Positions 10,829-62,813 of a stretch of DNA of 64,000 nucleotides are shown piece by piece. A program made the translations under genes and the position numbers. The stretch covers positions 60,576,001 through 60,640,000 of the forward strand of contig CM059432.1 of the NCBI GenBank assembly GCA_030390025.1. The letters are read 5' to 3'. Below the pieces are notes generated by a model. It searched no databases. It was not told the DNA's origin and was given only the letters and a program-made list of their open reading frames with translations. Positions within the stretch are counted from its first letter, which is position 1; every line of letters starts with the position of its first letter. This stretch comes from Squalus acanthias (Eukaryota).

Positions 10829-11420
10829 ATTATCTTTCAGCAGCGTCTGGGCCAGCTTAAAGTGATTCACACTCCTTTCTCTAAGAAAGCCTCTGGCCTC
10901 TCCATGCTGGCATAGCTTGGATCAGCTTTTGAGTATTCAGGAGTTGTATCACTTTTTGAATAGGATTATTCTGCTACATCACCCGTATGTCTGTATGCAA
11001 TGAAGCGTGAAAGTTCCCTGCCTGTGTACAAATTGTATTCTTGAATGAGAACTGCATTTGCTTAAGTTCAGTTGCACTAGTAGCAGCAACATGAATTCTA
11101 TCTGTGAATGTCAAAATTACTTTAGTTTGCGCAGGAAAACATGAATAGCCAATGCATTCTGAAAGACTTGGTCACTGCATTTCATTAATAGCCGGAATAC
11201 TTGAACTTTGAGCCACAAAAGCATTACAATATTCAAGTAGAATATTTTATATTTTAACATAGCTTCTTATGATCCCTAACTCTCCAAACTACTGATGTTT
11301 TCCTGCTGATTTAAATGTTATCTATCTACATTTATAGCTTTCTGAAGAGTTGGCAATGCTGTTAGTCCACCAGTACATCAAAATCAATGGGAAATGCTAA
11401 AGTCTGCTATTCTTACTTAC

Positions 11421-11564
11421 GATGCGGAGATGCCGGTGTTGGACTGGGGTGGACAAAATTGAGAGGTCGCACAACACCAGGTTATAGTCCAACAGTTTTA
11501 TTTGAAATTCAGATGTCAAATAAAACTGTTGGACTATAACCTGGTGTTGTGCGACCTCTCAATT
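11421..11564. mobile_element. Miniature palindromic Penelope-like element (terminal segment only)
   Basis: 49-bp perfect inverted arms (11457-11505 / 11516-11564), a 10-nt spacer and a one-sided 36-nt tail (11421-11456). Sequence is identical to 21529-21615. 12-bp TSD attcttacttac (11409-11420 / 11562-11573). Confidence 0.93.
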
Positions 11565-12049
11565 CTTACTTACCCCAGAGGTGGTGCTGTAATTTCTCAG
11601 CCTGTGAGAAGAAACAGAGCTAGAAGACATAATGCTCCTAAAAGTCCTGGATGTGGAGGGGGATTGTGATAGTGGAATTTTGGGCGGGACACAGTTTACA
11701 CTCCATCTCAGCCCCTTTCTTTAACTTGGAAAATTTCAACATCATTCAGAGGAAAGACTGGCGAGATGACTTCCTCAAGTCAGAATTTTTACCAGTTCTG
11801 CCTTTACTAGGGGGCATGATGCAGGTGTATTTACTTCACTAATGTGGTGGTATGGACCTAATGCCGGTTCCTTGGCAGCAATCAACCACCAAGAAACCAG
11901 CAAATAAATTGAATTTATTTTTATAAATGTACTCTTCAACTAGAACAGTCTCGACCCCCTGATGGAGTAGCAAGGTGCCATTCCAATATTCCTGGCCAAT
12001 CTCACAGGGCAGATATCCAGGGGCTGCCAAAGAGATGGTATGAGGACAA

Positions 12050-17180: not shown

Positions 17181-17521
17181 CGGCCTAGAAATTGGATAAG
17201 GCCCAAAAACGGACGTGGGCATTGCGCAACGCCATGTGCCCGTGCCCGTTCAAAGTGGTGCAGGCAGCATGCAAAATTCATGCTGCCTGCTCATTATAAT
17301 GATTGCAGCACTGATCTCAGTGCTAAACGCGCTGCTGATTGTCTTAGCGCTGAACAGGGGGGCCAATATCGGGTGCAGTCTTATGGCCAATAAAGTTTGG
17401 CTTAGGCTCTCTGCACTACTTAAAGAGGAGGTGCTTTGTTGCAGAAGCACCTCATTGTCATTGTGAACAGAATTGAGAGGTCGCACAACACCAGGTTATA
17501 GTCCAACAGTTTTATTTGAAA

Positions 17522-17559
17522 TCACAAGCTTTCGGAACTATCGCTCCTTCCTCAGGTGA
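17522..17559 (-). ncRNA. Minimal hammerhead ribozyme motif (mirror copy)
   Basis: Exact reverse complement of 21492-21529. Confidence 0.8.
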
Positions 17560-17896
17560 AGTAAATTGGATACAGAATCGTCAGAGCATATATAGATGGA
17601 AAAAAAAGCATGTGTACTTTACAATTGCAGACCAATAAATTAAATCATCCTGACTATCTGCCGAGGTGTGATAAAGTTAATTAAGTCAGCCAGGAAGGTA
17701 CCACATCAAAAGACATAGCAAGATACAACTGAGACAATGAGGTGAAGTCGCAGGGGTTCTAACGTGTCAAAAGCTGCCGTCTGTATGTAAAACGAAAAGC
17801 TTTAAAAAAAAAAAATTTACTTTTTTACTGGGAAAATTTTTACTTTTTTACTGGGAATCACATCTGTGAACAAGCTAACGACGACTCGAGTCCGGA

Positions 17897-19525
17897 TCAC
17901 GTCATGTATCGTGACATAAACCCAAGATCCCGATTGAGACCGTCTTCATGAGTGCAGAACTTGGCTATCAGTTTCTGCTCGATGATTTTGCGTTGTCGTG
18001 TGTTTCTAAGGTTGCCTTGGAGAACGCTTACCCGCAGATCCGAGGCTGAATGTCCTTGACTGCTGAAGTGTTCCCCGACTGGGAGGTAACAATCCTGCCT
18101 GGCGATTGTTGCGCGGTGCTCGTTCATACGTTGTCTCAGTGTCTGCATGGTCTCGCCGATGTACCATGCCGCGGTGCATTCTTTCCTGCAACGTATGAGG
18201 TAGACAACGTTGGCCGAGTCACATGAGTATGTACCATGTACCTGGTGGGTAGTGTCCTCACGTGTGATGGTGGTATCTGTGTTGATGATCTGGCATGTCT
18301 TGCAGAGTTTGCCATGGCAGGGTTGTGTGGTGTCGTGGTCGCTGTTATCCTGAAAGCTGGGTAATTTGCTGCGAACGATGGTACTTCTGAGGTTAGGCGG
18401 CTGTTTGAAGGCAAGTAGTGGAGGCGTGGGGATGGCCTTAGCGAGGTGTTTGTCGTCATCGATGACATGTTGAAGGCTGCGAAGAACATGTCGTAGTTTC
18501 TCCGCTCCGGGGAAGTACTGGACGACGTAGGGTACCCTGTTGGTTGTGTCCCGTGTTTGCCTTCTGAGGAGGTCTATGCGATTTTTCGCTGTGGCCCGTC
18601 GGAACTGTCGATCGATGAGTCGAGCGTCATATCCCGTTCTTACGAGGGCGTTTTTCAGCGTCCGTAGGTGTCCATCGCGTTCCTCCTCGTCTGAGCAGAT
18701 CCTGTGTATTCGCAGGGCTTGTCCATAGGGGATGGCTTCTTTAACATGGTTAGGGTGGAAGCTGGAGAAGTGGAGCATCGTGAGGTTGTCCGTGGGCTTG
18801 CGGTAGAGTGAAGTGCTGAGGTGTCCGTCTTTGATGGAGATTCGTGTGTCCAGGAATGAGACCGATTCTGAGGAGTAGTCCATGGTGAGTTTGATGGTGG
18901 GATGGAACTTGTTTATGTTATCGTGTAGTCTTTTCAGTGATCCTTCGCCATGGGTCCAAAGGAAGAAAATGTCGTCGATGTATCTGGTGTACAGCGTTGG
19001 CTGGAGGTCCTGTGCAGCGAAGAAGTCTTGCTCGAACTTGTGCATGAAGATGTTGGCGTATTGGGGTGCGAATTTGGTCCCCATGGCTGTTCCGTGTGTT
19101 TGGGTAAAAAAATGGTTGTCGAAGGTGAAGACATTGTGGTCAAGGATGAAGCGGATGAGTTGTAGGATGGCGTCTGGAGATTGGCTGTTGTTGATGTTGA
19201 GTACTGAGGCTGTTGCAGCGATGCCGTCATCGTGGGGGATACTGGTGTAGAGTGCCGATACGTCCATCGTGGCAAGGAGTGTTCCTGGTTCAACTGGTCC
19301 GTGGGTGCTGAGTTTCTGTAAGAAGTCTGTAGTGTCGCGACAGAAGCTGGGGGTTCCCTGTACGATGGGTTTCAGAATGCCCTCGACGTATCCAGAGAGG
19401 TTCTCACACAGGGTTCCATTGCCTGATACGATAGGACGTCCGGGTGTGTTGGCTTTGTGTATCTTTGGGAGGCAGTAGAAGTCTCCCACGCGGGGAGTAC
19501 GTGGGATGAGAGCGCGTAGGATGTT
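17897..19525 (-). CDS. Mirror copy of the PLE RT/GIY-YIG ORF, 5'-truncated
   Basis: Identical translation except one residue (LKNAL vs LKDAL; nt 18652 vs 20399). Confidence 0.93.
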   Translation of the reverse strand, partial: NILRALIPRTPRVGDFYCLPKIHKANTPGRPIVSGNGTLCENLSGYVEGILKPIVQGTPSFCRDTTDFLQKLSTHGPVEPGTLLATMDVSALYTSIPHDDGIAATASVLNINNSQSPDAILQLIRFILDHNVFTFDNHFFTQTHGTAMGTKFAPQYANIFMHKFEQDFFAAQDLQPTLYTRYIDDIFFLWTHGEGSLKRLHDNINKFHPTIKLTMDYSSESVSFLDTRISIKDGHLSTSLYRKPTDNLTMLHFSSFHPNHVKEAIPYGQALRIHRICSDEEERDGHLRTLKNALVRTGYDARLIDRQFRRATAKNRIDLLRRQTRDTTNRVPYVVQYFPGAEKLRHVLRSLQHVIDDDKHLAKAIPTPPLLAFKQPPNLRSTIVRSKLPSFQDNSDHDTTQPCHGKLCKTCQIINTDTTITREDTTHQVHGTYSCDSANVVYLIRCRKECTAAWYIGETMQTLRQRMNEHRATIARQDCYLPVGEHFSSQGHSASDLRVSVLQGNLRNTRQRKIIEQKLIAKFCTHEDGLNRDLGFMSRYMT

Positions 19526-21154
19526 AACATCCTACGCGCTCTCATCCCACGTACTCCCCGCGTGGGAGACTTCTACTGCCTCCCAAAGATACACAAAGCC
19601 AACACACCCGGACGTCCTATCGTATCAGGCAATGGAACCCTGTGTGAGAACCTCTCTGGATACGTCGAGGGCATTCTGAAACCCATCGTACAGGGAACCC
19701 CCAGCTTCTGTCGCGACACTACAGACTTCTTACAGAAACTCAGCACCCACGGACCAGTTGAACCAGGAACACTCCTTGCCACGATGGACGTATCGGCACT
19801 CTACACCAGTATCCCCCACGATGACGGCATCGCTGCAACAGCCTCAGTACTCAACATCAACAACAGCCAATCTCCAGACGCCATCCTACAACTCATCCGC
19901 TTCATCCTTGACCACAATGTCTTCACCTTCGACAACCATTTTTTTACCCAAACACACGGAACAGCCATGGGGACCAAATTCGCACCCCAATACGCCAACA
20001 TCTTCATGCACAAGTTCGAGCAAGACTTCTTCGCTGCACAGGACCTCCAGCCAACGCTGTACACCAGATACATCGACGACATTTTCTTCCTTTGGACCCA
20101 TGGCGAAGGATCACTGAAAAGACTACACGATAACATAAACAAGTTCCATCCCACCATCAAACTCACCATGGACTACTCCTCAGAATCGGTCTCATTCCTG
20201 GACACACGAATCTCCATCAAAGACGGACACCTCAGCACTTCACTCTACCGCAAGCCCACGGACAACCTCACGATGCTCCACTTCTCCAGCTTCCACCCTA
20301 ACCATGTTAAAGAAGCCATCCCCTATGGACAAGCCCTGCGAATACACAGGATCTGCTCAGACGAGGAGGAACGCGATGGACACCTACGGACGCTGAAAGA
20401 CGCCCTCGTAAGAACGGGATATGACGCTCGACTCATCGATCGACAGTTCCGACGGGCCACAGCGAAAAATCGCATAGACCTCCTCAGAAGGCAAACACGG
20501 GACACAACCAACAGGGTACCCTACGTCGTCCAGTACTTCCCCGGAGCGGAGAAACTACGACATGTTCTTCGCAGCCTTCAACATGTCATCGATGACGACA
20601 AACACCTCGCTAAGGCCATCCCCACGCCTCCACTACTTGCCTTCAAACAGCCGCCTAACCTCAGAAGTACCATCGTTCGCAGCAAATTACCCAGCTTTCA
20701 GGATAACAGCGACCACGACACCACACAACCCTGCCATGGCAAACTCTGCAAGACATGCCAGATCATCAACACAGATACCACCATCACACGTGAGGACACT
20801 ACCCACCAGGTACATGGTACATACTCATGTGACTCGGCCAACGTTGTCTACCTCATACGTTGCAGGAAAGAATGCACCGCGGCATGGTACATCGGCGAGA
20901 CCATGCAGACACTGAGACAACGTATGAACGAGCACCGCGCAACAATCGCCAGGCAGGATTGTTACCTCCCAGTCGGGGAACACTTCAGCAGTCAAGGACA
21001 TTCAGCCTCGGATCTGCGGGTAAGCGTTCTCCAAGGCAACCTTAGAAACACACGACAACGCAAAATCATCGAGCAGAAACTGATAGCCAAGTTCTGCACT
21101 CATGAAGACGGTCTCAATCGGGATCTTGGGTTTATGTCACGATACATGACGTGA
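19526..21154 (+). CDS. PLE reverse transcriptase + GIY-YIG endonuclease, open frame, 5'-truncated (no native start)
   Basis: FYCLPKIHK, RPIVS, MDVSALYTSI, GTAMGT, RYIDDIF, FLD, YRKPT; Cys linker CHGKLCKTC; NVVYLIRC...WYIGET...RMNEH...E...GLN. Confidence 0.93.
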   Translation, partial: NILRALIPRTPRVGDFYCLPKIHKANTPGRPIVSGNGTLCENLSGYVEGILKPIVQGTPSFCRDTTDFLQKLSTHGPVEPGTLLATMDVSALYTSIPHDDGIAATASVLNINNSQSPDAILQLIRFILDHNVFTFDNHFFTQTHGTAMGTKFAPQYANIFMHKFEQDFFAAQDLQPTLYTRYIDDIFFLWTHGEGSLKRLHDNINKFHPTIKLTMDYSSESVSFLDTRISIKDGHLSTSLYRKPTDNLTMLHFSSFHPNHVKEAIPYGQALRIHRICSDEEERDGHLRTLKDALVRTGYDARLIDRQFRRATAKNRIDLLRRQTRDTTNRVPYVVQYFPGAEKLRHVLRSLQHVIDDDKHLAKAIPTPPLLAFKQPPNLRSTIVRSKLPSFQDNSDHDTTQPCHGKLCKTCQIINTDTTITREDTTHQVHGTYSCDSANVVYLIRCRKECTAAWYIGETMQTLRQRMNEHRATIARQDCYLPVGEHFSSQGHSASDLRVSVLQGNLRNTRQRKIIEQKLIAKFCTHEDGLNRDLGFMSRYMT

Positions 21155-21491
21155 TCCGGACTCGAGTCGTCGTTAGCTTGTTCACAGATGTGATTCCCAG
21201 TAAAAAAGTAAAAATTTTCCCAGTAAAAAAGTAAATTTTTTTTTTTTAAAGCTTTTCGTTTTACATACAGACGGCAGCTTTTGACACGTTAGAACCCCTG
21301 CGACTTCACCTCATTGTCTCAGTTGTATCTTGCTATGTCTTTTGATGTGGTACCTTCCTGGCTGACTTAATTAACTTTATCACACCTCGGCAGATAGTCA
21401 GGATGATTTAATTTATTGGTCTGCAATTGTAAAGTACACATGCTTTTTTTTCCATCTATATATGCTCTGACGATTCTGTATCCAATTTACT

Positions 21492-21529
21492 TCACCTGAG
21501 GAAGGAGCGATAGTTCCGAAAGCTTGTGA
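21492..21529 (+). ncRNA. Minimal type I hammerhead ribozyme motif in the PLE 3' region
   Basis: TCAC-CTGAGGA-A-[GGAGC gata GTTCC]-GAAA-GC-T-T|GTGA. Conserved CUGANGA/GAAA core, 5-bp stem II, palindromic AAGCTT in place of helix III, stem I TCAC/GTGA. Confidence 0.8.
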
Positions 21530-21628
21530 TTTCAAATAAAACTGTTGGACTATAACCTGGTGTTGTGCGACCTCTCAATTTTGTCCACCCCAGTCCAACA
21601 CCGGCATCTCCGCATTGTGAACAGAGCC

Positions 21629-21867
21629 ATGGCCCATAAGCCAAGAGAGAGGGTGAGGAGATTTTCGGATGCTGCACTGGAGGCCTTGGTCCTGGGGGTT
21701 CAAATACACCATCAGGTGCTCTACCCGCAGGGGGACAAGAGGCCTTTAAGGTTGAACAACAGAAGGTTGTGGGAGGAGATCGCTCAAGCCGTCACTGCGC
21801 GAGTGTTGTCCCCAGAACCTGGATCCAGTGCCGCAAAAAGTTTAATGACATCACACGAGTGGTCAAG
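21629..21867 (+). pseudogene. Harbinger Myb/SANT-like DNA-binding protein, exon 1, frameshifted
   Basis: MAHKPRERVRRFSDAALEALV...LWEEIAQAV / PRTWIQCRKKFND followed by a gtgagt donor. Confidence 0.8.
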
Positions 21868-22839
21868 GTGAGTGAATGCATCTTCAAATGCCATATCTCA
21901 CCAACTGCACCACTAGCCTCACACACTGCTCAATGCACCACACCCCCATCACTCACCTACCAACAATCTCGAGCAATCATCACTCATACCTCACAATCAT
22001 AGCTTCACATCACCGTCACACACTTACCACTGCTGCAAGACTCACTCCCACATCTCAGACACACTGCCAGCTATTCAACCATGGAAGGCACATCACCCAA
22101 ACACATTGCACCACACTCACTGACACACTTCCGTTTCTCTCATGATGCTGCGTGTGATGGGCGATATCGCAGCTTCCATTGCAGCACAGGCGGAAGTGAC
22201 CCAATGTCTCAGTGCTGCAGTGGAATCTCAGACTGCTGCCATCGTGGTTGGGTTTACGAGTGTCGAAAAGGGCTTGCGGGGTCTCGCAGCACCCCAGCGA
22301 TCTGTCCCCCAACAGATGGCTAGGAATGTTGAGGCACTGCCCCAGGGGAGTGGCAGTGGCTCAGTAGAGCAAGAATCTGCTGTCCTTTCTCAGGATAACA
22401 GCGTTCGTACTCCCAGCACTGTCACTCCACCAGTGCCCTGACTGCTGCCTCTCATCCAGCCAGCCCAGACTGTTGCCACCCGTGCCGAGGTGATGCAGTC
22501 TACAGCCGGGCCTTCTAGGTCCAGAGCTGCTCGAGGTCATCCTGCACGGCCATCTGCAGTCTCCCACACTGAAAGTCAGCAGCCTTCCACCAGCCATGCT
22601 GCAGCCACTGGGAGAGCACTTCATAGGAGCACTAGAGTAGGAAAAGGTACATGAAAGACAGACATTAAGGGAATGCACAAGGGGGATTAGTTGACTTTGA
22701 TCTTTTGATTTGCATTTGATAACTTTATAAATTATGTTTGGAATGTTTGTTTTGTGGTAGCTTTCATTTCAGCTTTGTGCCTAGGAGGACACTGTGATGG
22801 TAAGATGGGGAAGTGGTGTGCAACGGGGATTTGGGGTTT

Positions 22840-23690
22840 CATTCACTGGAATCAGAGCCTGACTAGGCGTTCACAGACAGCCTGTCCGGAATGGGGATCT
22901 GCTGCCTGCCTCCTCCCTTCCTTCTCTTCCTCTTCCTCTTCTTCCTCCTCCTCCTCCTCCTGAGGTGGTCCCAGAACCCCTGGTGGTAAGGGCTGCACCT
23001 TCTTGCTGGCTAAGTTGTGGAGCATACAGCAGACCACCACGAAATGGGACACCCGCTCCGGCATGTACTGGAGGGCTCCTCCCGAGCGGTCAAGGCAGCG
23101 GGACAATTGCTTTAGCACCCCAGTGGTCTGCTCGACGACGTTCCTCATGGTAACATGGCTGCCATTATATGAGTACTGGCCACGAGTGTTGGGGTTGCGG
23201 AGGGGAGTCATCAGCCATGTGTAGAGCGGATAGCCCTTGTCTCTGAGCAGTCACCCTTGGGTTTGACGTAGAGGCTGGAAGATTGCTGGCACACCAGACT
23301 AGCGCAGGATAAAGGCATCATGACTGCTGCCAGGATACCGGGCATTTACCATCATGATGAGCCACACAACGCCACATTATGTGAGTGGTAGCCTTTGCAG
23401 TTACAGAACATCTCAGGATATGTATGCGGTGCCTGCAAAGCCACGTGTGTGCAGTCGATGGCACCATGCAGAAGCCCGATATCCTGGCAAAGTCACATGT
23501 GCGCTCGTCCTGCTTCTCTCTGTTCAGAAGCAGAGCCTCTCTCTGTGACCTCCCGGATGCAGCGATGGACGGCAAACTGGGATATGTTAGCTATGTTGCC
23601 TGCTCCAGACTGGAATGATCCGATGGCGAAAAGACTGAGGGTCATGGTGACCTTGAGGACCACTGGGAGAGCCGTCGTCACCCTGCTCTG
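22840..23690 (-). pseudogene. Harbinger (HARBI1-like, DDE_Tnp_4) transposase remnant
   Basis: GSFQ...ISQFAVHRCIREVT; MTPLRNP...YNGSH...[12 protein letters not shown]...CCMLHN followed by an acidic tail; several frameshifts. Confidence 0.85.
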
Positions 23691-24364
23691 AGATTCTGGT
23701 CTGGTTGCAGGAGGTGGCAGAGTTCCTGTTGTTGCTACTGCTGTTGCTGCTGTTGTTGTTCCTGGTTCTGCTGCTGCCGTGGCTGCTCTTCATTCAAATC
23801 TGAGGTCCAGGATGAAAGGAAATAAATGGTTCCCATGCTGCTGGTAGATACCTCAGTTGAGGAAGCGTTCAGTCAATGTGGAGAGAGGGTTTTCCCAGGA
23901 GGTCACCGTGGAGATGGATCTCAGCTTCACCACTTCCAAGATCAGTAGACCTGCAAGAAGTTCTCCAAGACCTGAAAAAACAAAGTTCTGCCACCTGCAA
24001 CTGATCCTTGTTGAAATCTCCATTTTTATGGTGGAGCTGCAGCTGTTAGGAAGCCAGCCACTTGTTAACCCGACAGGATTGGCTGGCGTGTTTCAGGGGA
24101 GACGTGCAGCACGCTGGAAATGTGGGAAAATGTGAAAGGCCTCTCAAAATGGCATTATAGAGGTTCTGAAGTAGTAGTTAAGTGCCTTAAGGGCCTATCC
24201 CGCCGCTTGGAGGTGCGACCGAAATGGACTCTGCAAGCCGCCTCTGGCAAAGTTGCGCGGAGGCGGGTTGACGGCGGGATCAGAACCCTGCCGTCATTTT
24301 TTACAAAGTTTCCCACCTGACCTGCCTTCAATCCCGCTTCCTCAGGGCTGGTAAAATCTAGCCC

Positions 24365-45509: not shown

Positions 45510-46307
45510 GGGCAGAATTTTCATTGACACGTGGAGGCGGGTTTGGAGGCGTGTGGGGTGGGAAAATAGCAGATTCGGGGGTCCCGAACCCATCCCGCCT
45601 CCATGCCAGTTTCACAGGAGGCGGGTACCCGACCTGTGCTGGGACCCGCCTCCCCGAGGCGGGAAGGGGATTAGTGCCAATAAACTGCCTGTTAACAGGT
45701 TGTTAACGGGCAGTTTTTTGCGTAATCCCTATTTTTAGCCCTGAAGTGTGGGCTACCCGACGGCTCCAAACCACGCCGATTTAGCGAGGTGGACCGTGGG
45801 TCTGCAGGGGTTGGAGGGGTCGATATGTCCGGTGGGCAGGTGAGTGATGGGTGCATGAGTGCAGAGGTAAGTGTGTAAGGTAAGTGTAAAGTGTGGAAAA
45901 AGGTTTTACTTACCTTAACTTCCTCCTGCAGGTGTCAGCCCTTCAGGTCTTGGGAGTCAGAAATCTCACTGGCACAGAAAGCAGAATGGCCGTTGAGCTG
46001 TCAAAAGGTGCAGCCTCTGCTTTTTGTTCTGCAGAGATCTCTAAATCAGCCTGAGAGGAAGGAATTAACTTAGAGGACAGATTGTCAGTGTTTGACAGCT
46101 TCAAAGAGCTGTCAAACGCTGATATTTCATCTGTCAAAAGCTCTTGACAGATGAAATGTCAATCTGTGATGTCGCCCGCTGGGCAGGCTCAACAAGGTCA
46201 ATCAAGGGAAAATACAGTGGGTTGGCCACAAGTTGATGGAGGCGGGACTACAACCCAAGAAGTGGGAGTCCCGCCTCCATCACGTCCCCATTGACAAAAT
46301 CCAGCCC
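45510..46307. mobile_element. Harbinger-type MITE (~798 bp)
   Basis: Ends gggcagaatttt / aaaatccagccc; perfect TSD aat. Confidence 0.85.
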
Positions 46308-46340: not shown

Positions 46341-48634
46341 GGAAAAAGTTAGAGATGTAACAGATTTTAAGCAAGTGCAAAGGCAAGGAAAGGGGGGAGG
46401 AGAGGAAAGAACAAAAGGGAAGGTCTGTGATAGGATGGAAGACAGGAGAGATTAAAAGACAAAAGGGATGATGGTGCAAGGCAAAAGGAGATGGTAATGG
46501 GACAAATATAGAAACAAAAGATGAGTCTAAAAGAGGTGTAAATGGGAATGGCAGAATCATCAATAGCTGCCATGTGAAAAAATAGGGGCAGAGGTTATGG
46601 TCTGAAATTGTTGAACTCGATGTTGAGTCCAGAAGGCTGTAAAGTGCCTAATCGAAAGTTGAGGTGCTGTTCCTCGAGCTTATGTTGAGCTTCGTTGAAA
46701 CACTATAAGAGGCCGAGGACAGAAAGGTCAGAGTGGGAGTGGAGAGGAGAATTAAAGCGACAGGCAACCGGAAGCTCGGGGTCACGCTTACGGACTGAAC
46801 GGAGTTGTTTTGCAAAGTGGTCATCCAATCTGCGTTTGGTCTCCCTAATGTAAAGGAGACCGCACCGTGAGCAGCGAATACAGTATATTAAATTGTAAGA
46901 AGTACAAGTAAATCGCTGTTTCACCTGGAAGGAGTGTTTGGGGCCCTGGACAGTGGGAAGGGAGGAGGTAAAATGGCAGGTGTTGCATCTCCTGCACTTG
47001 CACGGAAAAGTACAGTGGGAAGGGGAGGGGGTGTTGGGGGTGATTGAGGAGTGGACCAGGGTGTCGTGGAGGGAGCGGTCCCTTCGGAATGCTGAAAGGG
47101 GAGGTGAGGGGAAGATGTGTTTGGTGGTGGGATCATGCTGGAGGTGGCAGGAAATGGTGGAGAATAAACCATTTCTGGATTTTCTGGCTCCCATGTTAGC
47201 TGACATTGTTAACGGTTCTCTCTTCTCAGGTACTGTCCCCCTCTCCGTCAAATCTGCCACCATGACCCCTCTCCTCAAAAAAACAACCCTTGACCCCTCC
47301 ATCCTTGCAAACTAGCGCCCCATCTCCAACCTCCCTTTCCTCTCCAAAGTCCTTGAACATGTTGTCGCCTCCCAAATACGTGCCCATCTTTCCCGCAGTT
47401 CCATGTTTGAAACCCTCCAATCAGGTTTCCGCCCCTGCCACAGTCCCAAAACGGCTCTCATCAAAGTCACAAATGACATCCTTTGTGACTGTGACAAAGG
47501 TAAACTATCCCTCCTCGTCCTTCTTGACTTGTCTGCAACCTTTGACACAGTTGACCACTCCATCCTTCTCCAACGCTTTCTCCACCGTCGTCCAACTGGG
47601 TGGGACTGCACTCGCCTGGTTCCATTCATATCTATCTAATCATAGCCAGAGAATCACCTGCAATAGATTCTCTTCCTGCTCCCGCACCGTTACCTCTGGT
47701 GTCCCCCAAGGATCGATCCTTGGCCCCCTCCTATTTCTCATCTACGTGCTGCCCCTTGGCGACATCATCCGAAAACACAGCATCAGTTTCTACATGTACG
47801 CTGACAACACCCAGCTCTACCTCACCACCACTTCTCTCAACCCCTCCACGGTCTCTAAATTGTCAGACTGCTTGTCCGACATCCAGTTCTGGATGAGCAG
47901 AAATTTTCTCCAATTAAATATTCGGAAGACCGAAACCATTGTTTTCGGTCCCTGCCACAAACTCCGTTCCCTAGCCAATGACTCCATCCGTCTCCCTAAC
48001 ATCTGTCTGGTGTTGAACCACACTGTTCGCAACCTTGGTGTCACATTTGACCCTGAAATGAGCTTCCGACCACATATCCGCGGCATAACTAAGACCGCCT
48101 ATTTCCACCTCCGTAAAATCGCCCGTCTCCGCCCTTGCCTCAGCTCATCCGCTGCTGAAACCCTCATCCATGCCTTTGTTACCTCTAGACTTGAATATTC
48201 CAACGCACTCCTGTCTCCCATGTTCTACCCTACGTAAACTTGAGGTCATCCAAACCTCGGCTGCCTGTGTCTTAACTCGCACCAAGTCCTATTCACCCAT
48301 CAGCCTGTGCTCGCTGACCTACATTGGCTCCCGGTTCAGCAACGCTCGATTTCAAAATTCTTATCCTTGTTTTCAAATCCCCCCCATGGACTCGCCCCTC
48401 CCTATCTCTGTAATCTCCTCCAGCCCCACAACCCCCCCCCGAGATATCTGCGCTCCCCTAATTCTGCCCTCTTAAGCATCCCTGATTATATTCGCTCAAC
48501 CATTGGTGGCCGTGCCTTCTGTTCCCAAGGCCCTAAGCTCTGGAGTTCCCTGCCTAAACCTCTCCACCTCTCTACCTCTCTTTCCTCCTTTATGACACTC
48601 CTGAAAACCTACCTCTTTGACCAAGCTTTTGGTC

Positions 48635-60904: not shown

Positions 60905-62062
60905 GGCCGGAATTTTCTGTACCTGGGTGGGTCGGGTGGGTGCGGTCGCCATGGCAGGTCGCGACCCCGTTCTTCATACCATGCCGCTCCTGAGATCGAC
61001 TTTTCGTTAGTGGGGCCTATTAAGGCCACCCTGCGTGTTAGCCGGCCCTATTAAATGGTGCGGGTCTAATGACATCAGCGATGACGCGTTTTCAGCCGGG
61101 ATATTTAAAGGAGCCATGGCCACATTGCATTTGAAGGTTCATCTAGGAGTGTGCAAGCAGCACATTGCACAATTGGACTGCTACAAAGAGTGCCAAACAT
61201 GCCTGCACTGAGACAGAGGGCTGCACCCAGGTTCACCGATGACTCCCTCCATATGCTTGTGGAGGGAGTCAGAGCACGCAGGGAGGTCCTCTTCCCTTCC
61301 CATGGGCGGAAGAGACCTCCCCAGGAGACAAAAGGAGCCTGGCTCCAAATAGCAGAGGAGGTTAACAACAGGGATGTGGTCAGGAGGACCTGGGTGCAGT
61401 GCCGCAAACGTTTCAATGATCTCATTAGATCAGGAAAGGTGAGTGCAAAGCCACACTCAACTTCATCCTGCTGTGCCTCTCATCACATCGCCATCACTCT
61501 GGCATCCGAATCCTGCTCTTGCACATCCTTACTCACACCATCATACCTTGCACGCCCACCTATCCCTCTCTCTCTACATTATCACATCCCCATCTGACTA
61601 GCCACCCCTCACACTCACCCGCATCCTAATGCAATCATACCAACTAACAACACTCAAGGAGGCCACTTGGCATTGCCACCCCACTCCATCATAGTCACCC
61701 TCTACAGATGTAACCCATTCATTCCTTACACTCATTCCATCACTCTCACTCAACCTTCTCACTCAACCTTCTCTTTCCATCCTTGCAGGAAGAGAGCCCC
61801 ACAATGAGAGGGAGAGAACCGGAGGTGGCACTCCATCATTGGCCACCTTAACATCAGCAGAGAAGGCTGACTTGGAAGTCTCTGGAGTCTCCAAGCAGCT
61901 GGAGGTGGGAGACGGAGAGAGGGGGACATCTCGGCAACCTGGTGACAGAATTACATCTCATACAGTTACATGGCATACAGCAGTCACTCATATGGGGACT
62001 GATGTCAGCAGCCAGTGAATGTTCATCATGTGCATAATGGTATCTGTACCCATTATTCATAA
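60905..62062 (+). mobile_element. PIF/Harbinger left part with an intact Myb/SANT exon 1 (61199-61438)
   Basis: Starts ggccggaatttt; MPALRQRAAPRFTDDSLHMLV...AWLQIAEEV...RTWVQCRKRFND followed by gtgagt; next acceptor ccttgcag at ~61788. Confidence 0.82.
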
Positions 62063-62813
62063 ATGTGAGAAGTCGCACAACACCAGGTTATAGTCCAACA
62101 GCTTTATTTGAAATCACAAGCTTTCGGAGTGCTGCTCCTTCGTCAGGTGAAGTGAAGAGATGCACATAGTCACAGCATATATAGTCAGAGAACACTGCCA
62201 GATGATTACAGTTAATCTTTCCAACTACCCTTTATCACACCTCGGCAGAGAGATAATCACAGCAATCAAAGGTGTGGATGGTGTCCAAACAGGTCAGTCA
62301 GGAAAACATTACATCAAAGACAATGTGGCAGATGCTGGGGTCTGTATGGAAAACAAAAAACTTTTTTTGCTGGAAATCACAGCAGGTCCGGCCGCATCTG
62401 TGTAGAGAGAACAAGCCAACGCCGACTCGAGTCTGGATGACTCTACGTCAGGTGGGGTTACATGTAGCGTGACATAAACCCAAGATCCTGGTTGAGGCCG
62501 TCCTCATGGGTGCGGAACTTGGCTATCAGTTTCTGCTCGACGATTTTGCGTTGTCGTGTGTCTCGAAGGCCACCTTGGAGAACGCTTACCCGAAGATCGG
62601 AGGCTGAATGTCCTTGACTGCTGAATGTTCCCCGACTGAGAGGGAACACTCCTGCCTGGCGATTGTTGCGCGGTGTCCGTTCATACGTTGTCGCAGTGTC
62701 TGCATGGTCTCGCCGATGTACCATGCTCCGGGGCATCCTTTCCTGCAATGTATGAGGTAGACAACGTTGGCCGAGTCACATGAGTATGTACCATGTACCT
62801 GGTGGGTGGTGTC
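62063..62813 (-). mobile_element. Diverged copy of the palindrome-forming PLE family (GIY-YIG end + 3' UTR), cut by CR1
   Basis: DSANVVYLIHCRKGCPGAWYIGETMQTLRQRMNGH...DGLNQDLGFMSRYM; terminus homologous to 17471-17560. Confidence 0.92.
62114..62150 (-). ncRNA. Minimal hammerhead ribozyme motif
   Basis: TCAC-CTGACGA-A-[GGAG cagca CTCC]-GAAA-GC-T-T|GTGA. Differs from 21492-21529 only at N7 and in the distal stem II/loop II. Confidence 0.8.

Follow-up and report, generated by a model that had tools for sequence, protein, structure and literature searches.

A 64,000-nucleotide (nt) stretch of the Squalus acanthias genome (contig CM059432.1), here called the window and numbered from its first base, contains a 4.1-kb palindrome composed of two head-to-head copies of a 5′-truncated Penelope-like element (PLE) that meet without a spacer. 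The unit is very probably a real, single Penelope insertion. Its favoured origin, with a probability of about one half, is cDNA fold-back, in which one cDNA turns on itself and copies itself back.

Anatomy of the palindrome and its miniature

The centre of the palindrome lies between 19525 and 19526, within the spacer-free junction at 19520–19531. Outward pairing from this point gives a tail-less inverted arm at 17471–19525 on the minus strand and a tailed arm at 19526–21580 on the plus strand, each of 2055 bp. Complementarity holds in 2054 of the 2055 pairs, the sole mismatch being 18652/20399, and the next mismatch, at pair 2056, is the start of the flanks. The window has no N, and among the 25 listed of its 78 inverted pairs no other comes near this one in length or in closeness of match. 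A 13-bp target-site duplication (TSD) surrounds the unit at 17459–17471 and 21613–21625; this 13-mer occurs twice in the 64 kb, and two matches were obtained in 0 of 100 shuffles. The unit is asymmetric, with a 32-nt Penelope tail (21581–21612, plus strand) on the right arm only. The tail comprises 35 nt if its 3-nt overlap into the TSD is counted; on the left, 1 nt of the TSD also belongs to element-like sequence. The single arm-specific change, at 18652, replaces Asp with Asn in the tail-less arm, whereas the homologues keep Asp. CpG decay was considered as its source and rejected (context AAAGAC).

The spacer-less 2055-bp arms, their single mismatch, the open frame in both arms and the one TSD around the whole unit had all been proposed in a first-pass annotation, and the full pairing and counts bear them out. 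Its reading of the unit as one insertion event also stands, given one TSD, one tail and the recurrence of this layout in another copy. This second copy is a 165-bp miniature of the same subfamily on the minus strand (11409–11573), 6 kb from the long palindrome, flanked by a 12-bp TSD (11409–11420 and 11562–11573). It consists of a tailed arm (11421–11508), a 7-nt spacer (11509–11515) and a tail-less arm (11516–11564), and 84 of 84 bases match the right end of the long palindrome. The 5′ ends of its arms are 3 nt apart, its tail comprises 36 nt, and its tail-less arm starts at a native 3-bp inverted match (21527–21534). The sequence GATG within the 7-nt spacer equals the first four letters of a cDNA from the tail end. 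The turn of the long palindrome precedes a native CATC (19528–19531) by two bases, and the miniature tail ends on these four letters too (11421–11424), which may be chance. A third, older copy of the family (62061–62813, minus strand; 86–88%) is single-armed and tail-less, and differs in its 3′ untranslated region. Two-armed copies thus make up two of the three in the window, and in each of the two the arms are of nearly equal length and a single tail is present.

Contigs from sequencing runs were also compared with the locus. Half of the sampled words or more were present in 5 of 24 runs (0.61–0.65; two samples from two studies); no RNA run is on record with them, which says nothing about expression. 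Contigs of 4 of the 24 were compared with 19500–22600, an interval that takes in only 26 nt of the left arm, the left flank lying outside it. The comparison was swamped by family copies, and among the records listed none bridged the centre, the tail-flank junction or the empty site. In run X5, five contigs follow the reference from 19526 on; the letters that precede this point are different and read Asp-Pro-Asp-Leu-Gln, like those of the homologues. In run X6, from another organism, 18 contigs leave the reference two bases later. Native upstream sequence and mirror partner thus disagree already at the first base, which leaves a spacer of exactly zero and no native hairpin to account for the turn. 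A source copy of the X6 kind would make the centre a 4-nt self-complementary spacer, and a small spacer at the centre may have been lost in assembly.

Identity of the element

Each arm contains an open frame of 544 codons from stop to stop, running outward from the centre (17897–19525 on the minus strand and 19526–21154 on the plus strand), and the two products differ by one residue. The frame encodes a 5′-truncated reverse transcriptase (RT) with an RVT_1 match (E 8e-9) and YIDD at residue 184, a CX4CxxC linker (residues 405–413), and a CCHH-type GIY-YIG endonuclease. The Pfam match of the endonuclease (E 2e-4, 22.1 bits) is just below the cut-off of 22.6; its core has C448 and C452 between VVY and YIG, and H472 and H488 downstream. 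One open reading frame (ORF) with RT followed by GIY-YIG, together with the tail, the inverted 5′-truncated copy and the TSD, characterizes an endonuclease-positive (EN+) PLE. A CX2-5CxxC linker is present in Neptune and Nematis and absent from Penelope/Poseidon (PMC8557442). On this motif the arms are assigned to the 3′ part of a Neptune/Nematis-type PLE, and the presence of the linker sets them apart from Penelope/Poseidon.

The closest named proteins are from sharks, with up to 92% identity among 2303 homologues; the search gave no sequence with a clade label. Aligned to an 881-residue homologue, the frame starts only at residue 343, and consequently about 340 of about 880 codons are missing. 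The truncation has removed the DKG motif and the N-terminal domain, which are present in the closest homologues, from both arms, and the first Met is residue 89, adjoining the first catalytic Asp of the RT. The complete ORF with a start codon and the upstream pseudo-long terminal repeat (pseudo-LTR) of an autonomous element are lacking, and neither arm is autonomous despite its open frame because the first ~340 codons are missing from both. A Gly to Glu replacement at residue 471, found in both arms, was rejected as a private change and looks like a subfamily variant. One contig each of runs X2 and X5 lacks the 1458 bases between the RT region and the terminal repeat (20097–21556), with 27 letters on the short side, and an internally deleted subfamily is possible. 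The contigs of organism B cover both sides of 21268–21475 of the young copy and leave this interval uncovered, so the 3′ region seems to turn over. A 24-nt terminal pattern was found at 0 loci in metagenome contigs and 0 in viral contigs. A protein search gave one distant locus (28%) out of 290 candidates, which was not used.

A minimal hammerhead-like motif of the type described in PMC4209133 is located in the right arm at 21492–21529 on the plus strand, with a predicted cut after 21525, and its mirror in the left arm (17522–17559, minus strand) is recognized by motif only. It comprises a 4-bp stem I, CUGAGGA, a 5-bp stem II and GAAA, and lacks stem III. The miniature turns 1–3 nt behind the predicted cut. 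The folding of this region was equalled in 12 of 200 shuffles, and an Rfam search gave no hammerhead match at E up to 1. Rfam matches to microRNA precursors fell below the cut-offs, were attributed to hairpins and were rejected. The stem-loop folding of the tail is not significant, with 31 of 200 shuffles folding equally well.

Origin of the palindrome

In the fold-back route, a GIY-YIG endonuclease from an intact copy elsewhere would cut the target strands about 13 nt apart. The right-hand target end would pair with about 3 nt at the end of the RNA tail and prime a cDNA of 2.09 kb, which would end within the RT gene. The cDNA 3′ end would then acquire two or three untemplated bases that permit self-priming round a TTAA tip. 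The returning strand would reach the tail region, the left-hand target end, which resembles the tail start, would join at the tail-less site, and fill-in would open the hairpin into a palindrome. Fold-back is favoured because equal arms and a single tail follow from it by construction. In both two-armed copies of the window the arm ends nearly coincide (0 nt apart in the long palindrome, 3 nt in the miniature) and exactly one tail is present. The start of the miniature's tail-less arm at a native 3-bp inverted match also speaks for it. The sole arm-specific change sits in the tail-less arm, the would-be second strand, which hints in the same direction by at most 2-fold (one of one); as a non-CpG change it resembles a second-strand error in a single case. 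Self-priming has been proposed for Penelope junction palindromes, on an antisense template (PMC3846280), and cDNA snap-back has been observed in cells with an R2 protein (PMC11371274). Fold-back is placed first on three grounds: this R2 precedent, the arm in which the mismatch lies, and the dependence of the two-cDNA route on a broken RNA.

Several observations weigh against fold-back. No hairpin could come from native sequence upstream of the long junction, as the five X5 contigs diverge exactly at 19526. A DNA hairpin requires about 4–6 unpaired bases at its tip (PMC7999016), and since the tip is unpaired, the untemplated bases would have to match the mirrored cDNA end by chance, as can be expected for some out of many copies. 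In an in vitro reaction with a Penelope protein, cleavage and extension took place on both target strands, from both ends of the tail (PMC11167929), a behaviour that suits two cDNAs. The third copy (62061–62813) is tail-less with its partner arm absent, so tail-less ends may form without a hairpin. Moreover, the target DNA beside the tail-less end resembles the tail start only weakly. This resemblance comprises 6 of 9 bases at 17455–17471 and a 7-nt match with a one-base shift at 11564–11579; each has a probability of about 0.03 against window sequence, with lengths chosen post hoc, and duplex energy gives 0.33 and 0.028 (two rows of this test with p = 1.0 reflect the scoring floor). Under fold-back and two cDNAs alike, the resemblance would fit a step in which target end and tail base-pair.

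The most substantial alternative, two cDNAs off one RNA, is possible but less probable than fold-back. A dimeric RT-endonuclease would prime at both target ends, one cDNA starting from the tail end and the other from the tail-less site; each would reach the end of the shared template, a broken RNA 5′ end, and the two would be joined end to end by template jumping or end joining. The element PAc speaks for this route, as it cuts and extends both strands, its two start sites bound the tail, and a dimer is predicted (PMC11167929). This route demands no added bases for a zero spacer without a native hairpin, both outer junctions overlap native sequence by 1–3 nt, and a single-armed tail-less copy is present in the window. 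The turn of the miniature just behind the predicted ribozyme cut could also mark a defined RNA end. On the other hand, the RNA of the long palindrome must already be broken at an arbitrary codon, both enzymes must copy 2 kb to the same last base, the second displacing the first, and a head-to-head product is not reported in the sections of PMC11167929 considered here. The first-pass annotation had named these two mechanisms as the candidates, which is the right pair, but they are inseparable from this locus alone. An unlikely, more far-reaching variant regards the spacer-free, homology-free centre as the footprint of a dedicated Penelope step, in which a dimer would copy one RNA twice from the ends of the tail, the tail would serve as a telomerase-like guide that aligns the target DNA as primer, the cDNA ends would be joined bluntly, and shark germ lines would long tolerate multi-kilobase perfect palindromes.

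An insertion that was at first less symmetric, its arms unequal or a spacer between them, could later have been evened out, either through conversion of one arm by the other or through a break at the centre that was rejoined, but this is improbable. Long inverted repeats do promote recombination (PMC7999016), and several sites in both arms differ from the commonest family letter. However, among 25 listed arm rows of run X2 (249 more are unlisted), none has the other letter at 100%, so these differences resemble variation between subfamilies. Repair should, moreover, tend to create asymmetry and not to erase it, which counts against later evening-out. An artefact, in which the perfect centre or the entire second arm came from a fold-back read or from polishing, has similarly little probability. 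Head-to-head Penelope structures do trouble assemblies (PMC8557442), the listed contigs bridge neither the centre nor the flank junctions, and the best runs contain 0.61–0.65 of the sampled words; but the comparison consisted of contigs only, with few rows listed (2601 loose ends are unlisted), and such a blank is no evidence. An artefact of the whole structure is unlikely because different flanks share a TSD, the tail is one-sided and the arms differ at one base; the 165-bp twin with the same layout argues likewise. A chimeric fold-back read is disfavoured since it would be expected to mirror one flank. Two independent insertions at one site are extremely improbable, given one TSD around the unit and none at the centre, identical truncation, and one difference in 2055.

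Setting, age and known systems

The insertion target is probably a decayed Harbinger element (17182–24364), judging from coding remnants. A Myb/SANT-like frame of a Harbinger-like transposon (21629–21871, plus strand) has its ATG 3 nt behind the TSD, spans two reading frames, and gives a Pfam match under the cut-off; a DDE_Tnp_4 transposase fragment follows at 22852–23250 on the minus strand. A script found no Harbinger terminal repeats around the site within 3 mismatches, and a weak 9/12 terminal match was seen by eye (17182 and 24353–24364), without a TSD. A transcript from the left end of the Harbinger element would cross the palindrome, with the potential to fold into a double-stranded RNA of 2 kb. 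Elsewhere in the window, another, distant Penelope-like family is represented by a fragment at 46622–47221 (32% identity across 208 residues), and 46120–46161 is a 42-bp near-palindrome unrelated to the Penelope family of the palindrome.

With the epaulette shark mutation rate of 7e-10 per base and generation (PMC10587355), one mismatch in two 2055-bp arms corresponds to about 350,000 generations (95% about 9,000 to 1.9 million), if it arose after insertion. If the mismatch was a copying error, it carries no age information and any younger age would fit, and arm-to-arm conversion would mask the age. The first-pass annotation expected the unit to be very young or polymorphic; a single mismatch allows up to about 2 million generations, although youth is plausible because long palindromes without a spacer are the more recombinogenic ones (PMC7999016).

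Inverted 5′-truncated copies, one-sided tails and junction palindromes are a described architecture of PLEs (PMC8557442, PMC3846280). The rarity implied in the first-pass annotation was overstated, as head-to-head junction palindromes are described as the commonest arrangement in PMC3846280. The Adineta vaga elements Pen2a_Av, Pen2 and Pen3a similarly have an inverted 5′-truncated head-to-head copy, a junction palindrome, a tail at one end (~31 bp) and one TSD (8–10 bp), and self-priming was proposed for them (PMC3846280). In contrast, their junction palindromes measure 18–38 bp and their inverted copy ~180–210 bp, whereas here the entire 2055-bp arm is mirrored with zero spacer, no native hairpin and a turn within the RT gene. 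Canonical EN+ PLEs (Neptune/Nematis) share the RT, the C-terminal CCHH GIY-YIG, the CX2-5CxxC linker, the inverted 5′-truncated copy and a tail of 30–40 bp at one end (PMC8557442); unlike them, this locus has no upstream pseudo-LTR or full-length copy. PAc, a Poseidon element of Anolis carolinensis, likewise has its tail between two end points, and a hammerhead motif lies just upstream, where the arms here have a hammerhead-like one (PMC11167929). Poseidon lacks the linker motif, however, and the start sites of PAc have no homology to its target, in contrast to the weak likeness between target and tail at both insertions here; inverted pairs are not treated in the portion of PMC11167929 considered. 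R2 snap-back is alike in that the cDNA 3′ end self-primes before the 5′ junction forms, but it concerns another retroelement class, engineered templates and a minor product class (PMC11371274).

In L1 twin priming, both target ends prime and one TSD brackets the inverted product, the two halves of which are copied from separate RNA segments that do not overlap. In the present unit a single RNA segment occurs twice, both arms covering the same 2055 nt, and the unit does not have the make-up of a twin-primed product. Only the length and perfection of the palindrome are unusual, and it is an extreme example of a known layout. A literature search by title and abstract opening, with poor coverage of subscription papers and supplements, found no multi-kilobase spacer-free Penelope palindrome.

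The formation of tandem and inverted Penelope insertions is still called undefined (PMC8557442). One locus alone is insufficient to settle it, but a long, near-unmutated pair with its turn in a coding region is a clean test object. With a large set of such pairs, fold-back could be told from two cDNAs by whether the arm-specific changes lie in tailed or tail-less arms. Should long reads bear out the zero spacer and several animals share the allele, such an insertion would give a measure of the lifetime of a 4-kb perfect palindrome in a vertebrate germ line.

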